DNA from: Candidatus Marinacidobacterales bacterium
GTDB taxonomy: Bacteria; Acidobacteriota; Vicinamibacteria; Marinacidobacterales; SMYC01
Direction: 5' to 3'
Assembly: GCA_965224085.1 (NCBI GenBank)
Contig: CBDCYI010000005.1
Span: forward strand, 1,856,001 to 1,920,000
Length of the DNA stretch: 64,000 nucleotides
The position numbers were made by a program, and so were the translations under genes. The notes under the pieces are model-generated. The model made no database searches. It was not told the origin of the DNA and was given only the letters and a program-made list of their open reading frames with translations. This document shows, piece by piece, positions 324 to 11,814 of the stretch; within the stretch, counting starts at the first letter, position 1; each line of letters opens with the position of its first letter.

Positions 324-2573
324 TCATTCTTCGACGATGCGCGCGTGGCAGGCGTGCGTAGCCTCGATGAACAGTTGCGCTTCCTCGATAAGGTGGTGCG
401 CGTCGTCGGCGCTCAGACGGTCGAGCTCCTCTTCGTGGGCTCTGAACAGGTAGTGGGCGAACTTACCCTTTGCGAAGCGGTCGAAAAAAAGCCCGGTGTC
501 GTAGAATCGACTTCGGAACTCGCCCACAATCCGCGCTGGCTCTCCGTTGTTGTCCGTGGTCTGGGTGTGCACCAGCGCTGCCGCCGCCGAAACCATGGCG
601 TCGTACGCGCCCTCGGCCGCGCCACACGCATCACCACCCTCGAGTTTGAGCTGGGCCTCGAAGACGAGCCTTTCGCTCGCCGCGACCTCGAACGCGAACC
701 GGGAGACGAGTTCACCCGCACACTCACCGCGCCCCATGTCCCCGATCGTGAACTCGCGCGGATCGCCCCAGTCGGAATAGAGAATCGAGTCTTCCTCGTA
801 ACTGGGAACGACCATCAAGTCTTCGATTAGAGCGCGCACTTTTGCTTTACCCATGCTCCGAATCAACGCGGAGAACGTTTGCCCCGGCTGCGTCTCTCGC
901 CGGTAGAGATCCGTGAGCCTCGTGACGACCTCAGGAATACGTTTCGACGGCACCGCCCCAATGGCCAGCCCGAACGATTTCGCGTTCTCGGTCCACTGGC
1001 CACCGAGAACGACCTGGAAGTGCGGGACCGTTCTTCCTTCGACCTGTCGACTGACTCCGTAAAAGCCGATGTCGGCAACGTGGTGCTGCCCGCACGAGTT
1101 GAAACATCCGCTCACTTTGATGTGAAGATCCTTCACGGCTTTATCGGAGGCGAGGTTCTGCCCCAGGAGACGGCTTCTGAGCTCGCCAGCGAGACCGCGC
1201 GATGACGCGATGCCGAGCTTGCAGGTATCGGTCCCGGGGCACGCGGTGACGTCGACGATCGTGCCGCCGCCGGGTTGACCGAGCCCGATCGATTCGAGCC
1301 GGGCGAAAAGCTCCGGAAGGTGCGCTTGTGCGATGAAGCGCAGCACGAAGTTTTGGTCCACGGTGGTGCGGAGGGGGTCGCCGCTGAGCCGGCGCGCAAT
1401 GTCGGCTAGCGCTCTTGCTTGGAACGCCGAGATGTCCCCGAGGGGGAGGGTGACGAGGGCTGCGGCGTAGCCCTCCTGGCGTTGAGGACGAACGTTCGTG
1501 GCCTTCCATGCGTCGAACTCTGCCGGCGCGTTCGCCTTGTCTCCGTCCGCCGTTAACGGCACCATCGTCGCGTTCTCGCCATCGTCGTCGCGCGCGTTCG
1601 AGTATTCCGTCCAGCGAGGATCCTGTGGCAATTGCTTCCGCTCTTCGAGGACGAGACGCCGGAGCTCTTCGATTCCCAGCTTGCCGACGAGAAACTTAAG
1701 GCGGGCCCGTGCGCGGTTCTTCTTCTCCCCGAGCCTGGCGAAAACGCGGCAGATAGCTTGGGCGGTGGGAAGGAGCTCCTCCTCGGGAAGGAACGGCTCG
1801 AACAGCTTCGCGGGATAAGGAACGGCGCCGAGACCGCCCCCGACATAGAGCTCGAATCCGCGGCGCGTGCGGCCTTCGCCGGTTCGGGTTCGGGCGATGA
1901 AGCCGAGATCGTGAAACGTCGTGAGTCCGCAAGGCTCGTCCTTGCAGCCGGAAAAAGCAATCTTGAACTTGCGACCGAAGTCCTGCGCGTCCGGATGACC
2001 GAGCAGAAAATAGGCCAGCGCCCTCGCGTAGGGTGTGACATCGAACGTTTCACCTTTGCAGACGCCGGCTAAAGGACAAGCGGTCACGTTCCGCACCGAG
2101 TTGCCACAGGCCTCGCGTGTCGTGATACCAACTGCGGCAAGACGCCGCATGACGTCGGGCGTATCCTCGATATGAACATAGTGAAGCTGGAAGTCCTGGC
2201 GCGTCGTGACGTGAAGCACACCGACGGAGTACTCTTCGGCGAGTTCTGCCAAGACGTCGAGCTGATCCGGTGTGATTCTCCCGAACGGTATCTTGATCCG
2301 CTGCATCCCGGGTGCGTCCCAAAGCGTTTGCGGGCCCTTGGTGAGCTCCCCGGACGGGTAGCCGAGCACGCGTGGCCGGTTGCCGTCATGGCGCTGGCCG
2401 TTGTCGTAGCGTTGCCCATAGACGCCGCGTCGCAGCCGGCTTTCGGCGAAGAGCTTCTCATTGAGCTTGTCTTGCCGGCGAAGCTCGAGCTCCGTCTCAT
2501 AGATGTCGATCTCACGCCCGAGCGCGGCCGGGATACGGCTCTCGAGCTGTTCTCTCCAGGTCGGGATACTCAT
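324..2573 (-). CDS. Ferredoxin-dependent sulfite/nitrite reductase (siroheme, 4Fe-4S) with C-terminal HEPN-like extension
   Basis: Motifs LRRGVYGQR, HVTTRQDFQ, CGNSVRNV, ACPGTDTCKLG, SGCFNSCGQH. The start MSIPTW (ATG 2573) overlaps the upstream stop (ATGA). Confidence 0.9.
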   Translation of the reverse strand: MSIPTWREQLESRIPAALGREIDIYETELELRRQDKLNEKLFAESRLRRGVYGQRYDNGQRHDGNRPRVLGYPSGELTKGPQTLWDAPGMQRIKIPFGRITPDQLDVLAELAEEYSVGVLHVTTRQDFQLHYVHIEDTPDVMRRLAAVGITTREACGNSVRNVTACPLAGVCKGETFDVTPYARALAYFLLGHPDAQDFGRKFKIAFSGCKDEPCGLTTFHDLGFIARTRTGEGRTRRGFELYVGGGLGAVPYPAKLFEPFLPEEELLPTAQAICRVFARLGEKKNRARARLKFLVGKLGIEELRRLVLEERKQLPQDPRWTEYSNARDDDGENATMVPLTADGDKANAPAEFDAWKATNVRPQRQEGYAAALVTLPLGDISAFQARALADIARRLSGDPLRTTVDQNFVLRFIAQAHLPELFARLESIGLGQPGGGTIVDVTACPGTDTCKLGIASSRGLAGELRSRLLGQNLASDKAVKDLHIKVSGCFNSCGQHHVADIGFYGVSRQVEGRTVPHFQVVLGGQWTENAKSFGLAIGAVPSKRIPEVVTRLTDLYRRETQPGQTFSALIRSMGKAKVRALIEDLMVVPSYEEDSILYSDWGDPREFTIGDMGRGECAGELVSRFAFEVAASERLVFEAQLKLEGGDACGAAEGAYDAMVSAAAALVHTQTTDNNGEPARIVGEFRSRFYDTGLFFDRFAKGKFAHYLFRAHEEELDRLSADDAHHLIEEAQLFIEATHACHARIVEE

Positions 2574-3110
2574 GCAAGAACTCCTTTTGATGAGACATGC
2601 CCTTTCGATATGGGCTCGGCGAGGCGCACGACGTCTCCAATGACGATCACGCCGGGTGCGCCGGGGAGAGGCACGGCAACGCGGGAGAGCGCCGCGATCG
2701 TTCCGGTCCACACGGCGGCTTCGGGGGAGGAAGCGTTACAAGTGATAGCGGCCGGGGTCGTTTGGCTCCAGCCGCGCTCGATCAAACACCTGGCGAGCGT
2801 CGCCCGAGTCGCCAAGCCCATCAGCACGACGAGCGTCGCTCGGTGAGGGGTTACCGAGTCGAGTACTTCGACGAGAGCTTCCGTGCTGTGGCCCGACAGC
2901 ACGACGAACGCCGAGGTGACGCCGCGGTGCGTCAACGGCACCCCGGCGAGCGCGGGCGCCGCGAGCGCCGAGCTGATGCCGGGAACGATCTCGTAGGCTA
3001 CGCCCCGCTTCGCCGAGAGCGAGTGCTTCCTCACCGCCTCGACCAAAAACGAACGGGTCACCACCCTTCAGGCGAACGACACGGTCGCCTCCGCGGGCGA
3101 GATGGATCAT
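2570..3110 (-). pseudogene. cysG: Uroporphyrinogen-III C-methyltransferase half of siroheme synthase; frameshifted and 5'-truncated
   Basis: [18 protein letters not shown] in one frame and [22 protein letters not shown] in another (shift near 3005). Cut by an IS630 fragment. Confidence 0.85.
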
Positions 3111-3120
3111 GAGCTGATGG

Positions 3121-3563
3121 ATGGCTCTCTACGCCGCCTTTGACACGAAGACGGGGGAAGTTTTTGGCAAGACCGTCCGCCGACATACCAGCCAGGAGTT
3201 TGTCGCCTTCTTGGAGCAGCTGGTGCGAGCCACAAGCGAAAGCGTGAAATTCACGTCATCCTCGACAATCTCTCGGCCCACAAAACTGCCAAGGTCACCG
3301 AGTTCCTCCAGGCCAATCCGAAACTCCAATTGCACTTCACACCCACCTACTCCTCCTGGCTGAACAAAGTCGAGCCCTGGTTCTCCAAGATCGAGCGCGA
3401 CCTGATCCATCGAGGAGTGTTCACCTCCACCAAAGACCTAACCCGCAAGATCATGCGCTACATTCGCAAGTACAACAAAGACCCTAAGCCCGTGAAGTGG
3501 ACCTACAACGATCCGTCACGGCGCATCAAAACTACTAAACGTTCAGCTGTTACAGTCCACTAG
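3121..3563 (+). mobile_element. IS630-family transposase 3' fragment interrupting cysG
   Basis: [35 protein letters not shown]; ends ACAGTCCACTAG. Confidence 0.9.
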
Positions 3564-4019
3564 TTGCCGCCACCGCCCGAGGTCGCGAGGGAGGAGCGCA
3601 TCGAGACCCTCGCGCAGCAGCCGAGACAATGCAGGCGCCGACCCATCCGTCGAGATACTCAAAGTGACACCCGAGCGGCGGAGAACAGCACCGGCGTAGG
3701 CGCTGCAAGATGCCTTGTCGTCCACGGCGATCACGAACTGATGCCGTCTCTCGGCGCCCGTCGCGACGAGGCGATTGATCTTCGGCGTTGCCGCAGCCAT
3801 CACGAGCCAAGCATCGTCGAGATCGTGAAAGTAGAAGGCGCGAAGACGCACGGTCAGGTTCGGGTGGGTCCAGAAAAAGCCCACCGACGGGGCGACAAGG
3901 GTGACCCGCGCCCCTGCGTCCAGAAGGCCTCTCGTCTTGGACTCCGCCACGGTGCCGCCGCCGCCGACAAGGATGTCGCGTCCGTCGAGGCCTAGAAAAA
4001 CCGGAAACATTGCCGGCAT
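3564..4019 (-). pseudogene. cysG: Precorrin-2 dehydrogenase/ferrochelatase N-terminal half of siroheme synthase
   Basis: MFPVFLGLDGRDILVGGGGTVAESK and ISTDGSAPALSRLLRE; AGGAG RBS; truncated by IS630. Confidence 0.85.
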
Positions 4020-4037
4020 GATCTTGCTCCTAAAATG

Positions 4038-4074
4038 AAAAAGGCCCAGCTCCCGAAAAGGGGAAGCTGGGCCT
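4038..4074 (-). terminator. Intrinsic terminator in the 5' leader of cysG (attenuator 3:4 hairpin)
   Basis: Minus strand AGGCCCAGCTTCCC-CTTTTC-GGGAGCTGGGCCT-TTTT, about 20 nt upstream of the cysG start. Confidence 0.85.
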
Positions 4075-4097
4075 CAATCGCCGCGTCGATAACCGAT

Positions 4098-4226
4098 CTA
4101 CATAATTACCTGAAAGCTCGGGCTTGTCGCCTGGTCGCCCAGCGTCGCCCCGATACGATGCAGCAATTCCTCGAAAGGCCCAGTCCCACTGGGCCTGTTA
4201 CACTCGCAACCAAAGAAAATTGCCAT
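4098..4226 (-). CDS. Putative 42-aa Cys-containing leader peptide MAIFFGCECNRPSGTGPFEELLHRIGATLGDQATSPSFQVIM
   Basis: ATG 4226 to TAG 4098. Cys codons 7 and 9 lie directly before hairpin segment 1. Confidence 0.6.
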   Translation of the reverse strand: MAIFFGCECNRPSGTGPFEELLHRIGATLGDQATSPSFQVIM

Positions 4227-4251
4227 CGCCAAACTCTCGAATCAGAGATCC

Positions 4252-4280
4252 AATATGACCGAATGCATCGGCGTTGTCAA
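4252..4280 (-). promoter_or_regulatory. Sigma-70-type promoter for leader-cysG-sir
   Basis: TTGACA (4280-4275), 17-nt spacer, CATATT (4257-4252). Confidence 0.65.
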
Positions 4281-4291
4281 GATACCGCCCT

Positions 4292-5854
4292 CTATTCTTG
4301 AATATAGCCGAGTGCCTTGAGCTGCTCGATGGCCGCCGGGTCGAGACCTTCGAGCTCGCCTTGTTCCCCGGCTGTGTTGGCGTCGCGGGCCGGATCTCCT
4401 TCCACCCAAGCGCGAAGTATCGGCACGAGCCTAAAAGCCTCACCGGGAAGCTCGTCGTAGAGGTTTCGGGACTCTTCTGGATCGCTCACGATGTCGTAGA
4501 GCTCGTAGCGGTCGCCATCGGGATGGGGGATCTTGATGAGCTTCCAGCGCTCGGTGCGAAGGCTCCGCCACTTGCCGCGGATGCCTTCGAAGTAGATGCG
4601 CTCCTGCTCCGGGAACATGCGGCGCTTCGGAGCGCTCTCCGCGAAAGCGCTCAGAAACGGCAGACTCCCGCCTTCGAGTAGGGGCGCGAGGCTGGTCGCT
4701 TCGACGCCGTCGAAAGGATCGAGCTCCGCGAGCTCGAGAAGCGTCGGCCCGACGTCCATGAGGCGGACTTGCTGCTCAATTTCGGTGCCGGGCTCGATCA
4801 CGCCCGGGTAGCGGATCACGAGCGGCACGCGCAGGACTTCATCGTAGAGCACGAAGTCGTGGGTGAAGGAAAGGCCGTGCTCGCCCAACGCTTCTCCGTG
4901 GTCGGCGGTGACGGCAACAACGGTCGACGCTTCGAGCTCGAGCGCGTCGAGCGCGTTCAGGATCCTGGCGAGGTTGTCGTCCGTATAGGCGATCGCGCCG
5001 TCGTAGAGATCGCGCACTTCGCGAACGTCGTTCTCTCGGTAGCTCCCGTCGTCGAAGAAGATGCTCCCACGCGAGCGCCGCCAAAAGGCGAGATCGAGAA
5101 GGATGGAGTTTTTGGCGTAGTAGGGAAAGACGAGGTCGTAATAGGGGCCACCGGAAATGTCCGCATAAGGTGTTGGCTGGTAGCTCGCGCGATCGAGTTC
5201 CATCATGGCGCGTAGATGCTTGACACGCCCGTCCGCGGCGTATGCTTCGTGGAAGAGCACTGCATACGGGTAGGCCGGCGTATAAGGAAGATGGGGGTCC
5301 AGAAAGTGGAGCCAGAGGAAAAACGGCTTTTCGGGATCCCGCGCTTCGAGCCAATCAGTCGCGGCGAGCGAGAGGCTCCGCGCGTCCAGTCCCGCGGCGA
5401 ACTTGTTGTTGTGATACGCGTCGAAGCCTTGGTCGAGCCCCGAATTTCGGCGCAGCCACGTGTGCCGCGTCATCGCCGCCGTTTGATAGCCCGCTTCGTG
5501 GAAACGCTCGGCGAGGGTCTCGATCTCGGTCGCGAGTGTTGCGGGGTGGTTCCGCACACCATGATGGGGCGGCGTCCGTCCCGTCATCAGTGAAGTCACC
5601 GAAGGCAGCGTGAAGGGGGCTTGAGCGATGGTCGTCGCGAAACGTGCGCCTTCGGCTGCCAAACGATCGAGGTTCGGCGTCGTGTTCCGCGAGTAGCCGT
5701 AGCTTCCGACGTGATCGGCCCTGAGCGTCTCGATGGTGACGAGCAGAACATTTGGCTGCGCCCGATGCATGGAGGTCGCGGCGCTTTCTTCCGACCGCGG
5801 TTCGCATGCGGCCGCGAGGAGAGCTAAAAGAAGGACGAGCCGGGGGAAGCTCAA
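4292..5854 (-). CDS. Sulfatase-like (alkaline phosphatase superfamily) lipoprotein
   Basis: PNVLLVTIETLRADH, APFTLPSVTSLMTG, LHFLDPHLPY, TADHGE, C-terminal QLKALGYI; lipobox LAAAC. Start is approximate. Confidence 0.85.
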   Translation of the reverse strand: MSFPRLVLLLALLAAACEPRSEESAATSMHRAQPNVLLVTIETLRADHVGSYGYSRNTTPNLDRLAAEGARFATTIAQAPFTLPSVTSLMTGRTPPHHGVRNHPATLATEIETLAERFHEAGYQTAAMTRHTWLRRNSGLDQGFDAYHNNKFAAGLDARSLSLAATDWLEARDPEKPFFLWLHFLDPHLPYTPAYPYAVLFHEAYAADGRVKHLRAMMELDRASYQPTPYADISGGPYYDLVFPYYAKNSILLDLAFWRRSRGSIFFDDGSYRENDVREVRDLYDGAIAYTDDNLARILNALDALELEASTVVAVTADHGEALGEHGLSFTHDFVLYDEVLRVPLVIRYPGVIEPGTEIEQQVRLMDVGPTLLELAELDPFDGVEATSLAPLLEGGSLPFLSAFAESAPKRRMFPEQERIYFEGIRGKWRSLRTERWKLIKIPHPDGDRYELYDIVSDPEESRNLYDELPGEAFRLVPILRAWVEGDPARDANTAGEQGELEGLDPAAIEQLKALGYIQE

Positions 5855-5861
5855 AGAAACG

Positions 5862-8354
5862 TCAGGTGTTGTGCCCCCGCCCCGACGCGGGAATGGGTTG
5901 CGAGGCGAGCGCGACCGCGGTGACGACGCTGTCGTCCTGGAGCGAGATGAGAACGTGGTCGCCCTTTTTGATGTCACCGCTGATGAGCTGTTGGGCGAGG
6001 ATGTTCTCGAGCTGTGCTTCCATCGCACGGCGTAGAGGTCTTGCACCATAGACGGGATCATAACCGTCAGCGGCGAGTTTATCCTTCACCGCGTCCGTGA
6101 CTTGAATCGCTAAGTTCTGCTCCGCGAGGCGCTCGTTCAAATCATCGAGCGACAGGTCGACGATCTGGCGGATGTGCTCCCTATCGAGTTGATGGAACAC
6201 GATCAGGTCGTCGATGCGGTTCAGAAGCTCTGGCCTGAAGACCGTTTTGACCTCGCGCATCACACGGTCTTTGATCTCTTCGTACCTTCGTGAGGAGACC
6301 GGGCTCGAAAAACCGATGCCGGCAGATTCGCGTGTGACGTCCTCGCTGCCGATGTTAGACGTGGCGATGATGATCGTGTTGACGAAGCTGACCGTGCGTC
6401 CTTGCGCGTCCGTCAAACGACCGTCTTCCAGAATCTGCAGCATCATGTGATAAACGTCGGGATGCGCCTTCTCGAACTCGTCGAGAAGGATCACGCTGTA
6501 CGGGTTGCGCCTGACTTGCTCGGTGAGCTGCCCGCCTTCGCCGTAGCCGATATAGCCTGGAGGCGAGCCGATCATCTTGGAGACCGAGTGGCGCTCCATG
6601 TACTCGCTCATGTCGAGCCGGATGAGCCGCTCTTCGTCGTCGAGCAAAAATTGCGCGAGCGCTTTGGCGAGCTCCGTCTTCCCTACGCCCGTGGGTCCAA
6701 GAAAAATGAACGATCCGATCGGTCGCTTGCGGCCCTTGAGGCCCGCGCGATTTCGCCTTATGGCGTCGGAGACCGCGTGGACAGCGTTCTCCTGGCCGAC
6801 GATGCGTTGGTGGATGTTGTCTTCCATCCGCGTGAGCTTTTGCGCTTCGGATTCGAGCATACGCGTGACAGGAATGCCCGCCCAGCCTTGCACGACGCGT
6901 GCGATGTCCTCGGTCTCGACTGTCGCATCCTGTGGATCGCGGCTTTCGCGCCATGTTTTCATCATTTGTTTGAGGTCGCCCTCCAGTCGCATGATGTTTT
7001 GCTGGCAGACGGCCGCTCGCTCGTAATCCTGTGATTGGTAGGCCTCTCGTTGCTGCGAGATCAGCTTGTCCCGATCGCGCTTGGCGCGACGGACCTCGGG
7101 CGGCGCATAGACGAGCTCGAGATGTTTGCGCGAGCCCGCTTCATCCAGAAGATCGATCGCTTTGTCGGGAAGGAATCGGTCCGCGATATAGCGCTCCGCT
7201 AGCTTGGCCGCGGAATCGACGGCGTCGTTGCTGAAGCTGACGTTGTGATGGACCTCGTAGTGTCGCTGAAGGCCTTTCAGGATGCGCACCGTGTCCGAAA
7301 CCGTTGGCTCTTTGATCATGATGCTCTGGAACCGGCGCTCGAGTGCTTTGTCCTTCTCGATGTGTTTCTTGTAATCCTCGAGCGTGGTGGCGCCGATGCA
7401 GCGGAGCTGCCCGCGCGCCAGCGCGCTCTTCAGCATGTTGGACGCGTCGAGGCCGCCTTCGACATTGCCGGCGCCGACGACGGTGTGGAGCTCATCGATG
7501 AAGAGGATGACGCGCCCCTGCGCCGCGAGGACCTCCTCCTTGATGGTCTTGAGCCGTTCTTCGAACTCACCACGAAACTTAGAGCCGGAGACCACTTCGC
7601 TCATCTCGAGAAGCAGAACGCGCTTATTGGCGAGCGTGTCGGGAACTTCGGCGGTCACGATGCGCTGGGCGAGACCTTCGACGATGACCGTTTTGCCGAC
7701 GCCGGGCTCGCCGATGAGCACCGGGTTGTTCTTCTTACGACGCAACAGGATCTGGATGAGGCGATGGATCTCTTCCTCACGACCGATGACAGGGTCGAGC
7801 GAGCCTTTGCGGGCGAGCTCGGTGAGGTCCGTCGTGTACTTTTTGAGCGTCTCGAGCTTCGTGTCGCCACGCTTGTCGTCGACGGTCCGGCTTCCACGCT
7901 GCCGGAGATAGGCGTCTTTCGTGCGCTCGTAGCGGAAGCCGAGGTCGCGCAGGATGCGCGCCGAGAGACCCGCGGGTTCGCGATGGAGCGCTAAGAGCAT
8001 AGCGCCGACACCGACGAAGCGGTCTCCCAAATTGTCGGCTTCCTCTTTCGCCATACGGAGCACTTCTGCTGTCTGTGGCGAGACGAGGATTTGGAGCGAG
8101 CCTTCACGGCGCAATTTCAGCTTGTTGCGTTGGGCCGAGAGGATCAGGTCGACGATGGACTGTTTCGTCTCATCCGCCGAGTGACCGAGATCCCCCACCA
8201 GACGTATCGTCTCGGAGTTGTCTTGCTCTAGAAGCCCGAGAAGGATGAATTCTGGCGTGAGCTCGTTCTGCCTCAGGTTGACGAGCTCCATGGAGCCGAT
8301 ATTGACGGCCTCGATCACACGCTCCGTGCAATGACGAAAGAGGACATTGTTCAT
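5862..8354 (-). CDS. clpC: ATP-dependent Clp protease ATP-binding subunit ClpC
   Basis: Clp N-domains, two AAA+ modules ([16 protein letters not shown]), [31 protein letters not shown]. Confidence 0.92.
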
Positions 8355-8748: not shown

Positions 8749-9938
8749 TCATGACTCATCTGGAGGGGAGCGGATCTGGAGGTTGATCCGTCGAAGCTTC
8801 GTGGAGAGAGGGCATCGGAGCATGCGACCTTTCTTGCAGCGGGGACAGATGGTGAGGTCGATGCCGGTGAGCTCCTTGAGCCGCTCGCGCCAGTCCTTGT
8901 CCTCGGTGGCACGCGAGCTGACTTGCACGTCGTCGGCGTCGGTCGTGGGTTTTGTTTTCTCATCGAGCAACTGGCGCGCGACTACGAGCTTGGTGGTCGC
9001 ATTGGAGGAGGCCATTAAGCCGAAATGGCGAATCTTGACGAAACCTTTCGGCAGTACGTGCAGGAGGAAACGGCGGATAAATTCCTCTGGGGGGACGGTA
9101 ACGGTATTACCATTCTTGGTGGCGAAGCAGACGCCGTAGTGGTCGATGCGAATGAGTCGGCGGTTGGAGATGCCGACCCGGTGGGTATATCGGCCGAGGT
9201 AGTTGAAAACCTGCTCTGGGCCACCGAAGGGTCGTTTGCTGTAAACGACCCAATCGATGCGGTAGAGCTTGTCTTTCAGCTCCCGGAAGCGAGGTGGGTT
9301 TCTGAGGTGGGAAGCGTTTGCGCTCAACTCAAGCTCATCTTGGTCGTAAGCGAGCCTAAGGGCATCGAGAAACTTGCTGCGAAAAAGCCGCGACATGGCC
9401 TTGACGGGAAACAGAAAGCGAGGGTTTGCGGCGTTCCACAGCTGCTGAGGGTGGTTGAGCCCGCCCCCGGAGACGATGCAATGCAGGTGTGGATGGAACA
9501 GGAGCTTCCGGGTCCAGGTGTGCAGTACGGCGGTGAAGGCAAGTTGAGCTTCGAGCCGGCTTTGGCCGAACTCCAATAGAGTTCGCGAGGCGGCGCGAAA
9601 CAGGAGGTTGAACATGAACTTGGGATTGTCTCGGGCGAGAGGCTTGAGTTGCTGCGGGAGGGTGAAAACGACGTGGAAATAGTGAGTCGGAAGAATCCTC
9701 TGAGCTCGCTGCTCCATCCACTTCGCCTGGGCTAGGCTCTGACACTTGGGACAGTGCCGATTGCGGCACGAGTTAAACGAAGGCGCCGCGTATCCGCAAG
9801 CGTTACACACGTCGAGATGGCCACCTAGCACCGCCGTGCGACAGTTCTCTATAGCCCACATCACCTTGCGCTGCTCGGCTGTCAGCGCATGGGTTTGGCG
9901 AAAGCGTGGACCATGTTCGCGGAAGATTTCCGCGATCT
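8749..9938 (-). mobile_element. IS91-family rolling-circle transposase (5'-truncated)
   Basis: CRTAVLGGH, SCRNRHCPKCQ, HTW...HPHLH HUH motif, YLGRYTHR, LHVLPKGFVKIRHFG. Confidence 0.9.
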
Positions 9939-10259
9939 AGGCGGTTCGCTATGACCTTCACTTCGGTAGAGACAACGTCCAATTCTCCGGAAACGTGCCC
10001 AGTATAGAGTCGATTGAATTTCTCGGAAATGTCAACCAGCGTAATAGATTTTTGGGCCAATTCATCAGGCAGAAGGGAGATGTCAACCGTCGAGGTATGG
10101 AACACCTTCTTCAAACTCTTACGCAGATACAATTTCGTAATCTACTTAAACCGCTATACCGAGACGCTCATTACTTGCCAGCTGATCGGCGCCGGCATTA
10201 TGCACAGCCATAAAATGGCTGTGAGCACCTTCCTCCTGAACGCTACGAAGGCAGCGTTG

Positions 10260-10765: not shown

Positions 10766-10965
10766 GCTTCTGCCAACATTTGATTGCGGAAGCACCTGTC
10801 GAAACTCATGACGGAATGTCGGTTGAAGCAGCCAGTGAACTTCATCGGCTCAGAAACGGCAATCGCCAGTTAAAGCGTAGCTATCGATACACCCAAATCG
10901 GATCGCGGCTCTCAGCTTGCTTGCGAATTTCGTGATGGCAATTCTCAAGGCACTCGGATTCTTCC

Positions 10966-11814
10966 CTAAATGAGGTACTTGAAGCCGAGCACCATAGACC
11001 AGGGATTGATGCCACTGATTTCAGTGTCGCTCGGAATAGGAAGCGGATGCACCTCGTAAGGACTCGTGTCCTCAAGGTCATCGACCCAGATATAGGATGC
11101 CTTCACGCCGACTAGGAGCTTGTCGCCCAAACGATAGTCGACACCGACAAAGATCTGCTTGGAAAGCCCGCTGTCGGACAGATCGACGTCCTGCAGGCTG
11201 TTGTACTCCGCCGCGGGACGACCGTCGCACGGCTGATTGATGCAGGAATATTCGCTGCTGAAGTACAGCCCGGACAACTCCATGAAGGACAGCCCCAGCC
11301 CAACACCCAGATAAGGCATGATCCGGTTTTCCGCGAACGAGAAGTCGTGATAGGCGTTCAGGGACAGCGTGCGCACGGCCAGAGCATCGACTCTAGCTGT
11401 GCTGGTCGACGTATAGTTGCTGTCTTCGTTGGGTAGGACCGGAGACCCATCGAGCAAGGTGATGCCGGTGAATTCTTGCTCGACGTTGTTCGATCGCTGG
11501 GAGGCCGACACCTCCAAGCGCACTTCGCCGAAATCTCGACCGAAGGCAACTTCAAAGGCAGTACCGAGATCGGAGGGCAGGTCGTAAAACCACCGATAGC
11601 CCTCCGGCGTGCCGCTGCAAAGGTCGTTCGGATAACAGATGTTGTCCCGGTTATGGCCGGCCTGCTTCATGACGGGATTCGAGTTCGTACCGCCGCTTGC
11701 GCTCAAGTACCATCCGTAGGACCCCGGCTCTTGACCCGCGCTCCGTTCCGCTCCGCCGAGTACGGCGCAAATCGCAAGGGTGGCTCCGAAGGTCTGCTGC
11801 TTGGACAAATGCAC
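10966..11814 (-). CDS. Outer-membrane beta-barrel protein (opacity/porin-like)
   Basis: Signal peptide, WYLSASGG, RLEVS, SLNAYHDF, PYLGVGLG, terminal LGFKYLI. Confidence 0.75.
   Translation of the reverse strand: MHLSKQQTFGATLAICAVLGGAERSAGQEPGSYGWYLSASGGTNSNPVMKQAGHNRDNICYPNDLCSGTPEGYRWFYDLPSDLGTAFEVAFGRDFGEVRLEVSASQRSNNVEQEFTGITLLDGSPVLPNEDSNYTSTSTARVDALAVRTLSLNAYHDFSFAENRIMPYLGVGLGLSFMELSGLYFSSEYSCINQPCDGRPAAEYNSLQDVDLSDSGLSKQIFVGVDYRLGDKLLVGVKASYIWVDDLEDTSPYEVHPLPIPSDTEISGINPWSMVLGFKYLI

Follow-up and report, generated by a model that had tools for sequence, protein, structure and literature searches.

A candidate cysteine-sensing leader-peptide attenuator before siroheme and sulfite-reductase genes in Candidatus Marinacidobacterales, with Cys-rich leaders before sir in other Acidobacteriota

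Introduction

Transcription attenuators of the E. coli trp and Salmonella his type combine a leader open reading frame (ORF) carrying end-product codons with RNA strands that pair as 1:2, 2:3 or 3:4; the 3:4 pair is a U-tailed terminator just before the first gene, and a stalled ribosome masks strand 1 (10.1101/834739, accessible part). Here, we describe a candidate attenuator of this logic that would sense cysteine, on the minus strand of a 64,000-nucleotide (nt) stretch of a Candidatus Marinacidobacterales genome (assembly GCA_965224085.1, contig CBDCYI010000005.1, positions 1,856,001 to 1,920,000; the whole stretch is called the window). It stands before a sirC-like gene, upstream of sir, which encodes an assimilatory sulfite reductase. 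Like the trp attenuator, it has two regulatory codons only. Unlike trp and his, it would respond to cysteine, it belongs to a siroheme/sulfite-reduction operon and its host is acidobacterial. Moreover, its ORF has no stop between strands 1 and 2, spanning both and ending 23-29 nt before strand 3, the word GGCCCRG/CYGGGCC is found in all four strands, and its antiterminator would be bipartite.

Several leaders with Cys codons have been reported in other bacteria, and they are cited here from the accessible parts of the papers. The upstream ORF (uORF) uORFC-8-2, before cysS in Rhodobacterales, is a predicted ribosome-mediated attenuator in which an AUG and two Cys codons are conserved; it also has two stems and a terminal U run, and it was proposed to sense Cys-tRNA charging (PMC8632094). 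It differs from the window leader, with which we compare it by description only, in preceding a cysteinyl-tRNA synthetase gene of alphaproteobacteria and in having tandem Cys codons at positions 14-15 inside the first stem (PMC8632094). The window leader and its relatives stand before sirC or cysH-sir rather than cysS, and the C-x-C at codons 7 and 9 lies 4 nt upstream of the stem rather than inside it. In mycobacteria, leaderless poly-Cys ORFs such as Ms5788A precede cysteine-related genes and are cysteine-responsive in experiments (10.1101/834739; Mol Microbiol 2020). Their mechanism is translational: the Shine-Dalgarno of the following gene is hidden by pairing with the poly-Cys tract and, as far as the accessible part of that paper goes, no intrinsic terminator is involved (10.1101/834739); the window leader has a strong terminator, and the sirC Shine-Dalgarno lies outside it. 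The authors of the mycobacterial work wrote in 2020 that uORF-mediated attenuation for cysteine had not been described before (10.1101/834739).

Cys-codon leader ORFs were also predicted for cys/cbs operons of Actinobacteria, where conserved terminator hairpins are lacking and the authors suggest Rho (PMC1262725), and a leaderless 10-amino-acid (aa) leader with two Cys was predicted for Deinococcus deserti cysS (PMC4007540). Both cases, derived from comparative genomics or transcriptomics, resemble the window in having a short Cys ORF before sulfur or cysteine genes, yet in the accessible parts of these papers neither concerns sulfite reductase or Acidobacteriota. Thus, these sources describe cysteine leaders of three sorts only: translational ones (mycobacteria), predictions that lack a terminator (Actinobacteria) and leaders predicted for cysS (Rhodobacterales and Deinococcus). 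The view that Cys-rich leaders are known mainly from Actinobacteria, put forward in a first reading of the window from its letters alone (the original prediction), agrees with two of them (PMC1262725; 10.1101/834739). In the openly accessible literature, subscription papers being outside its scope, we found no description of Cys leader attenuators in Acidobacteria or before sulfite reductase, and in a 2010 survey the attenuators predicted in this phylum had almost no assigned function, according to its accessible part (PMC2965389).

The leader element of the window

The original prediction had called a promoter, a 42-codon ORF with Cys at codons 7 and 9, a first hairpin and a U-tailed terminator, and all of them were found as it had placed them (Table 1). 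By consensus scan, TTGACA/CATATT is the sole sigma-70-like site between 3000 and 6500, with 10 of 12 matches and a shuffle mean of 0.7. A Shine-Dalgarno-like GAGAG lies 7 nt 5' of the leader ATG. Strands 1 and 2 form hairpin 1 (4196-4176), a perfect 9-bp stem with a 3-nt loop and an energy of -16.0 kcal/mol by itself. The terminator stem is followed by TTTTTCATTTT; its energy is -27.6 to -29.8 kcal/mol, and at -29.8 kcal/mol it is the strongest of the terminator-like hairpins that the scan found on both strands of the window. From its end to the ATG of the sirC-like gene there are 22 nt, and the AGGAG of that gene lies outside the terminator and is unpaired in the minimum-free-energy fold.

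Reuse of one 8-mer in the hairpin strands, another element of the original prediction, was also borne out. The octamer AGGCCCAG has 9 copies in the window against 1.76 expected, a count reached in 0 of 100 shuffles, and the four hairpin strands account for four of these copies. The remaining five are located in ordinary contexts and not in such hairpins, hence the idea of a dispersed repeat (a repetitive extragenic palindrome or a miniature inverted-repeat transposable element) was rejected. For the 231-nt leader, the fold energy is -93.6 kcal/mol (z-score -3.39), a stability matched by none of 200 shuffles. For the window alone, 877 of 5000 shuffles leave the frame open by chance.

Table 1. 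Features of the leader and of the operon that follows it, in coordinates of the window. L001, L002 and L014 are loci of Candidatus Marinacidobacterales relatives.
Feature	Position	Strand	Details
-35 hexamer TTGACA	4280-4275	-	consensus scan; invariant in window, L001, L002 and L014
-10 hexamer CATATT	4257-4252	-	17-nt spacer after -35; CATACT in L001, CATATT in L002, CAGAAT in L014
Leader ORF	4226-4098	-	ATG 4226, TAG 4100-4098; 42 codons plus stop
Regulatory codons Cys7-Glu8-Cys9 (TGC GAG TGT)	4208-4200	-	Cys7 4208-4206, Cys9 4202-4200
Strand 1, AGGCCCAGT	4196-4188	-	5' arm of hairpin 1 (anti-antiterminator); starts 3 nt past Cys9
Strand 2, ACTGGGCCT	4184-4176	-	alternative partner of strand 1 or strand 3; repeat-pair listing, folds
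5' strand of 2:3 antiterminator extension, AATTGCTGC	4168-4160	-	masked folds
3' strand of antiterminator extension, GCGGCGATT	4084-4076	-	contains GCGGC block just 5' of strand 3
Intrinsic terminator (strands 3 and 4)	4075-4031	-	14-bp stem 4075-4041, 7-nt loop, U-tail 4040-4031
Shine-Dalgarno AGGAG of sirC-like gene	4031-4027	-	next ATG at 4019
sirC-like gene (CysG N-terminal domain: precorrin-2 dehydrogenase/ferrochelatase)	3543-4019	-	TIGR01470, PF13241
IS630-family transposase remnant	3121-3563	+	C-terminal part only, two frames; NF033545, PF13358
cobA (uroporphyrinogen-III methyltransferase) remnant	2678-3122	-	first ~67 residues missing, rest frameshifted
sir (NirA/Sir-type assimilatory sulfite reductase)	324-2711	-	intact ORF; PF01077, PF03460, NF007126

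A match to a known RNA family was looked for in Rfam 15, whose families include S-adenosylmethionine (SAM) riboswitch classes, T-box and amino-acid leaders. No covariance model matched anywhere in the window at the gathering score, and between 3900 and 4400 a relaxed threshold (E up to 10) returned just three matches (E 1.4-8.9), none credible. The leader peptide has no relative in the protein collection, a result that is uninformative either way, and among the 16 strong terminator-like hairpins of the window none belongs to a second Cys leader. A plus-strand gene at 4035-4301 (88 aa) was considered and rejected, since it has no Pfam match and since indels of 1, 2, 3 and 12 nt among the relatives would break its frame. 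Positions 4168-4160, read outside the leader frame, spell AAT TGC TGC (Asn-Cys-Cys), and in L001 a 1-nt indel shifts the equivalent AAT TAC TGC into the leader frame; the Cys-Cys reading is probably incidental to the pairing of this stretch with GCGGC.

Leaders in Candidatus Marinacidobacterales relatives

The comparison set comprised 80 loci obtained by a sulfite-reductase homologue search, and three of them (L001, L002 and L014) come from Candidatus Marinacidobacterales metagenome-assembled genomes (MAGs). The window sulfite reductase has 81% amino-acid identity to those of L001 and L002 and 66% to that of L014; most of the other 77 loci are Acidobacteriota, at 59-69%. These matches make an acidobacterium in or near Candidatus Marinacidobacterales the most likely source of the window. 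The operon of the relatives reads sirC (189 aa), cobA (250-262 aa) and sir, and that of L014 starts with cysH.

By blastn, the leader is 74% identical in L001 and L002 over about positions 20-279 of 281, directly before sirC. The alignment of these two with the window keeps the promoter hexamers, the ATG, TGCGAGTGT, the core of hairpin 1, the ATGTAG end of the ORF, GCGGC, the terminator, the U-tail and AGGAG. The nine bases TGCGAGTGT, encoding Cys-Glu-Cys, are invariant in the three sequences and read TGCAAGTGT in L014, while the GCGGC block is invariant in all four aligned sequences. Between hairpin 1 and the stop, conservation is poor and indels occur; these keep the stop in frame, being of 3 and 12 nt between the window and L002 and of 1+2 nt in L001.

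L014 has the same layout 280 nt before cysH: TTGACA, 17 nt and CAGAAT, then an ATG, five codons and TGC AAG TGT, with a GGCCCGG/CCGGGCC hairpin four nt on. Its ORF of 43 codons ends in ATGTAG and is followed by the GCGGC block and a 13-bp terminator with a U-tail. A fifth leader was found in L002 at about 4300-4545 on the minus strand, before cysH (PF01507), so that it is divergent and back-to-back with the sirC leader of the same locus. Its parts are a TTGACA box, a short ORF in which three of six codons are Cys, a GGCCCG/CGGGCC hairpin 4 nt past the last of these and, just before the cysH start, a GGCCCAGGTC/GACCTGGGC terminator with T5. Its sequence is otherwise unalignable with the other four leaders, yet the design is the same. 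An nhmmer profile of the four leaders, run against the 80 loci and the window, returned its own inputs, reverse-strand echoes of the terminators and one further match in L002, which is the terminator of this cysH leader.

The leader ORF and its Cys codons, whose conservation in homologues the original prediction had proposed to check, are therefore kept in L001, L002, L014 and the cysH copy of L002. In all five leaders the Cys codons are kept and a terminator is present, the ORF has 42-47 codons, exactly 4 nt separate the last Cys codon from GGCCC, and 23-29 nt separate the stop codon from the GGCCC of strand 3. The ORF body is free of stops in its own frame, whereas the other two frames together carry 1-4 stops in every leader; the chance of an open frame is 17-30% per leader. 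The features that mark this C-x-C design are the fixed 4-nt gap, a 7-8-nt word reused in four strands and, in L002, divergent back-to-back copies.

Cys-rich leaders before sir in other Acidobacteriota

We rank the phylum-wide context as the strongest support for Cys-sensing attenuation. A terminator scan of the 4 kb before sir at all loci showed strong terminators 50-150 nt before the gene in many Acidobacteriota, and the sequence preceding these sir-proximal terminators contains runs of Cys codons. Three or more TGY codons in a row occur 120 times on both strands of the 80 loci (923,001 nt). Of these runs, 43 are found in the sense direction no more than 450 nt upstream of sir, spread over 41 of the 75 loci with enough upstream sequence; for runs of at least four codons the proportion is 21 of 25. 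An ATG-started short ORF is open in the Cys frame in 32 of the 43 runs, and in the other two frames in 10 and 6.

The combination of an ORF of 8-90 codons, holding at least three Cys in six codons, with a terminator within the next 150 nt occurs 41 times right before sir, in 40 of the 75 loci, and 20 times elsewhere. The stretches examined upstream of sir amount to about 1.6% of all strand-bases covered by the search, and the L001 and L002b leaders themselves account for two of the 20 occurrences elsewhere. The loci with a Cys-rich short ORF and a terminator 100-300 nt before sir are L006, L008, L012, L017-L020, L023, L024, L026, L028-L031, L033-L035, L037, L039, L043, L051-L053, L055, L056, L058-L061, L064, L065, L068, L072, L073, L075-L077, L079 and L080. 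In L027, also counted among the 40, the candidate lies inside a cysG-like coding region and is probably spurious. Nearly all of the 40 loci are labelled as Acidobacteriota (Terriglobia, Acidiferrales, gp2, gp13 and others); apart from these there are two Chloroflexota (L008 and L012), the doubtful SAR324 match and one MAG labelled Rugosimonospora (L065).

These poly-Cys leaders fall into several peptide subfamilies with up to six consecutive Cys codons. In a 13-member subfamily the Cys codons lie in the 5' arm of a conserved hairpin and are followed by an invariant GTGTGG (GTGTGGGG in 11 of 13) that mimics the 3' arm of the terminator (GGTGGG). By nhmmer, there is no sequence similarity between the poly-Cys leaders and the window leader; what they have in common is the gene, the position and the logic. 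Like the window, the other acidobacterial units have a promoter, a Cys ORF, a terminator 50-150 nt before sir and an ORF segment mimicking the 3' arm of the terminator. They differ in having 3-6 consecutive Cys codons, in the terminator word, which is CCCACC/GGTGGG and not GGCCC, and, in the 13-member subfamily, in the location of the Cys codons inside the first stem. Rfam searched with 10 related loci returned no match. Taken over the phylum, Cys sensing by leader translation is the predicted rule for the sulfite-reductase gene.

For the 35 loci lacking the combination or enough upstream sequence, a relaxed scan (a CC or C-x-C ORF with a terminator, up to 4.5 kb upstream) gave scattered, unconvincing matches. 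In L015, an ORF with three consecutive Cys codons and a terminator is found downstream of sir at 9907-10041; this short Cys ORF lies about 850 nt before a sirC-like match (10896-11324) and may be a further Cys leader.

Alternative pairings of the leader RNA

RNAalifold recovered hairpin 1 and the terminator from the four-sequence alignment, as well as a further stem, formed between the region of the leader ATG and the sequence that follows hairpin 1. For hairpin 1 plus terminator, 91.9% of the alignment cells are paired, with two double-change pairs and a score reached by 47 of 500 shuffles; the terminator alone pairs in 96.2% of cells. For the competing structure, 2:3 with its extension (AATTGCTGC with GCGGCGATT), the values are 90.8% of cells, two double-change pairs and 99 of 500 shuffles. 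All eight pairs of the 2:3 core are possible in the four aligned sequences (100% of cells), and the extension pairs in 82%. The one informative change is in L014, where at one and the same pair position strand 1 has changed from A to G, strand 2 from U to C and strand 3 from A to G, and strand 4 keeps its U; thus, 1:2 and 2:3 stay Watson-Crick and 3:4 becomes G.U.

When the transcript was cut before strand 4 and a ribosome footprint was placed on the last Cys codon, strand 3 paired with strand 2 in all five leaders. In the same cut transcript without a ribosome it did not do so in three of the five. In the masked folds the GCGGC block pairs with the stretch after strand 2. The 2:3 antiterminator that excludes the terminator, as the original prediction proposed it, is therefore compatible with the pairs available in 4 of 4 aligned sequences and with the in silico folds of 5 of 5 cut and masked transcripts.

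Taken in isolation, hairpin 1 of the leaders has energies of -11.8 to -17.3 kcal/mol, the terminators -20.6 to -30.2 kcal/mol, and the bipartite duplex of 2:3 with its extension -17.0 to -39.0 kcal/mol before any loop penalty (-29.0 kcal/mol in the window, likewise without it). Stabilities rank alike in the trp attenuator, and with such a ranking the choice between the structures would have to be made co-transcriptionally.

Proposed mechanism and alternative explanations

We consider it likely, from sequence comparison, that the element is a ribosome-mediated (leader-peptide) transcription attenuator that reads charged tRNA-Cys and controls read-through into the siroheme/sulfite-reductase genes. 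Transcription would start from the TTGACA/CATATT promoter, and the 42-codon ORF would be translated as RNA polymerase advances. When Cys-tRNA is plentiful, or when no ribosome is loaded, 1:2 would form, leaving strand 3 free for strand 4, and the terminator would end the transcript. When Cys-tRNA is scarce, the ribosome would stall with Cys9 in the A site and its leading edge would cover the GGCCC of strand 1; strand 2 and AATTGCTGC would then be free to pair with strand 3 and GCGGCGATT once these are made. The resulting bipartite antiterminator would block the terminator and polymerase would read on. The footprint of a ribosome stalled on the Cys codon would reach strand 1, and the placement of this strand within such reach, which the original prediction had assumed, matches the constant 4 nt between the last Cys codon and GGCCC in 5 of 5 leaders.

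The proposal builds on the parts of the leader, their conservation in five leaders, the possibility of both pairings, the fixed codon-to-hairpin distance and the phylum-wide link to sir. From these we infer that the ORF is translated, that the signal is a ribosome stalled at Cys9 and that the choice between 2:3 and 3:4 is kinetic. The trp/his-type logic suggested in the original prediction thus gains support from comparison, through the five leaders and the 40 of 75 loci, as a predicted mechanism. The proposed mechanism is of a known kind; the combination of amino acid, operon and phylum and the C-x-C/GGCCC layout appear to be new.

Several observations weigh against this proposal. The window leader has just two Cys codons and they are non-adjacent. 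The classical model does not account for an ORF that continues about 30 codons past hairpin 1, nor does it explain why the stop always falls 23-29 nt short of strand 3. Which ATG serves as the start is uncertain in L014 and L002b, since in both the -10 box is followed at about 10 nt by an in-frame ATG, and in L002b the ATG taken as the start of a 45-codon ORF overlaps the -10 hexamer. Covariation is not significant for either structure with four sequences, and the cut folds of the two L002 leaders (L002a and L002b) show 2:3 even without a ribosome. Moreover, masking the footprint in equilibrium folds of the full-length leader leaves the terminator in place in the window, L001 and L002, and only L014 switches to 2:3. 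The fold with segment 1 masked, which the original prediction had called for, gave 2:3 in all five cut transcripts but a switch of the full-length leader in only one of four, and the model needs a kinetic (co-transcriptional) argument; equilibrium switching of the complete leader, seen in this one leader of four, is not claimed. Finally, both siroheme genes behind the attenuator are broken in the window, so its present-day function there is not assured.

The failure of the full-length folds to switch in three of four leaders would also suit a terminator regulated by a protein or small molecule that binds the leader RNA, in the manner of a riboswitch or an antiterminator protein, with the ORF being incidental. 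Hairpin 1 and GCGGC are indeed conserved at the RNA level, and covariation does not separate the two models. We nevertheless hold such regulation to be unlikely. There is no Rfam match, and the stretch of roughly 90 nt that separates strand 2 from the stop shows little conservation and many indels, so that it offers no aptamer-like core, while the leaders keep their frame, stop, Cys codons and 4-nt gap. Relatives moreover have runs of 3-6 Cys codons at the same place. Somewhat less probable still is that the ORF serves as a general sensor of translation or coupling, or responds to another amino acid, without its Cys codons being sensed; the element would then only couple transcription of the operon to ongoing translation. 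The length of the ORF (42-47 codons) and the presence of only two Cys codons fit this idea, and so does the stop, always 23-29 nt before strand 3, which suggests that the position of the ribosome near the terminator matters. Against it, the Cys codons are the only conserved codons that the hairpin sequence does not explain, and they lie at a constant distance from the hairpin in 5 of 5 leaders. Moreover, cysteine is the product of the regulated pathway, and poly-Cys leaders precede the same gene in 40 of 75 loci.

In the trp attenuator of Sinorhizobium, both a trans-acting small RNA (sRNA) and a leader peptide have been described (PMC6614838 and PMC7298713, accessible parts). By analogy, the ORF here could encode a functional small protein, for example a C-x-C metal or redox peptide, or the terminated leader of about 200 nt could be a trans-acting sRNA, attenuation being secondary. 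We regard this as improbable: the peptide is conserved only at C-x-C-x-R-P-x-G-x-G, which overlaps the hairpin nucleotides, changes fall at first and second codon positions, and neither Pfam nor the protein collection yields a match. The two hairpins also lie downstream of a co-directional sulfatase gene (4292-6061), each followed by T residues, and could be read as its tandem terminators, with the promoter and the ORF as chance matches. We hold this reading to be very improbable. The unit recurs before sirC or cysH in L001, L002 and L014 with no sulfatase upstream, the promoter hexamers are conserved, and the 22 nt between the terminator end and the sirC ATG are too few for another promoter. 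Just upstream of the L014 leader, the only ORF of at least 150 aa runs the opposite way. In fact, sulfatase homologues were found in none of the 80 loci, L001, L002 and L014 included; the leader unit therefore accompanies the sulfur genes rather than forming the end of an upstream gene.

Retaining Cys-sensing attenuation as the preferred explanation, we also think it somewhat probable, with less assurance than for the window element itself, that this element is one branch of an undescribed phylum-wide set of terminator-based Cys-sensing attenuators in Acidobacteriota and a few Chloroflexota, set on assimilatory sulfate reduction (cysH, siroheme synthesis and sulfite reductase). Such a set may join the poly-Cys leaders of Terriglobia with the minimal C-x-C design of Candidatus Marinacidobacterales. 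If this is true, cysteine biosynthesis genes would have their first family of classical attenuators. Its confirmation would mean that a major soil and marine phylum controls sulfite reduction by reading tRNA-Cys charging, and that in some members cysH and siroheme synthesis are under the same control. Hundreds of MAGs could then be annotated by a ready rule, which looks upstream of sir for a terminator and a short ORF rich in Cys, and the element would offer a compact natural switch that responds to Cys and has its spacing fixed at 4 nt.

Genes flanking the leader

The original prediction had placed the leader on a cysG-sulfite reductase operon. A sulfite reductase gene does lie downstream, but the first gene holds only a sirC-like N-terminal domain; its product has 158 aa and is truncated at about residue 153 of 189. 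When SirC of L001 and of L014 were used as tblastn queries, the match ended at residues 153 and 151. The operon is interrupted between the sirC-like gene and cobA by the IS630-family remnant, which consists of two ORF fragments and cuts off the sirC-like gene. Of cobA, the C-terminal two thirds are left, and L014 CobA matches the window by tblastn at residues 68-92 in frame -3 and at residues 108-215 in frame -1. The siroheme genes sirC and cobA are thus decayed in the window, yet sir, which requires siroheme, is intact, and the leader itself looks intact as well.

Most sir homologues align only from query residue 47 or so, and the first 46 or so codons of the sir ORF overlap the end of cobA in another frame, in the window and also in L001 (6001-6142). 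The true sir start is probably about 46 codons downstream of 2711, near 2573.

Upstream of the leader, the sulfatase gene is accompanied by a ClpB-like gene (5862-8354), both co-directional with it. The two ORFs overlap by about 200 nt (5862-6061) on the same strand, and the sulfatase probably starts further downstream than 6061.

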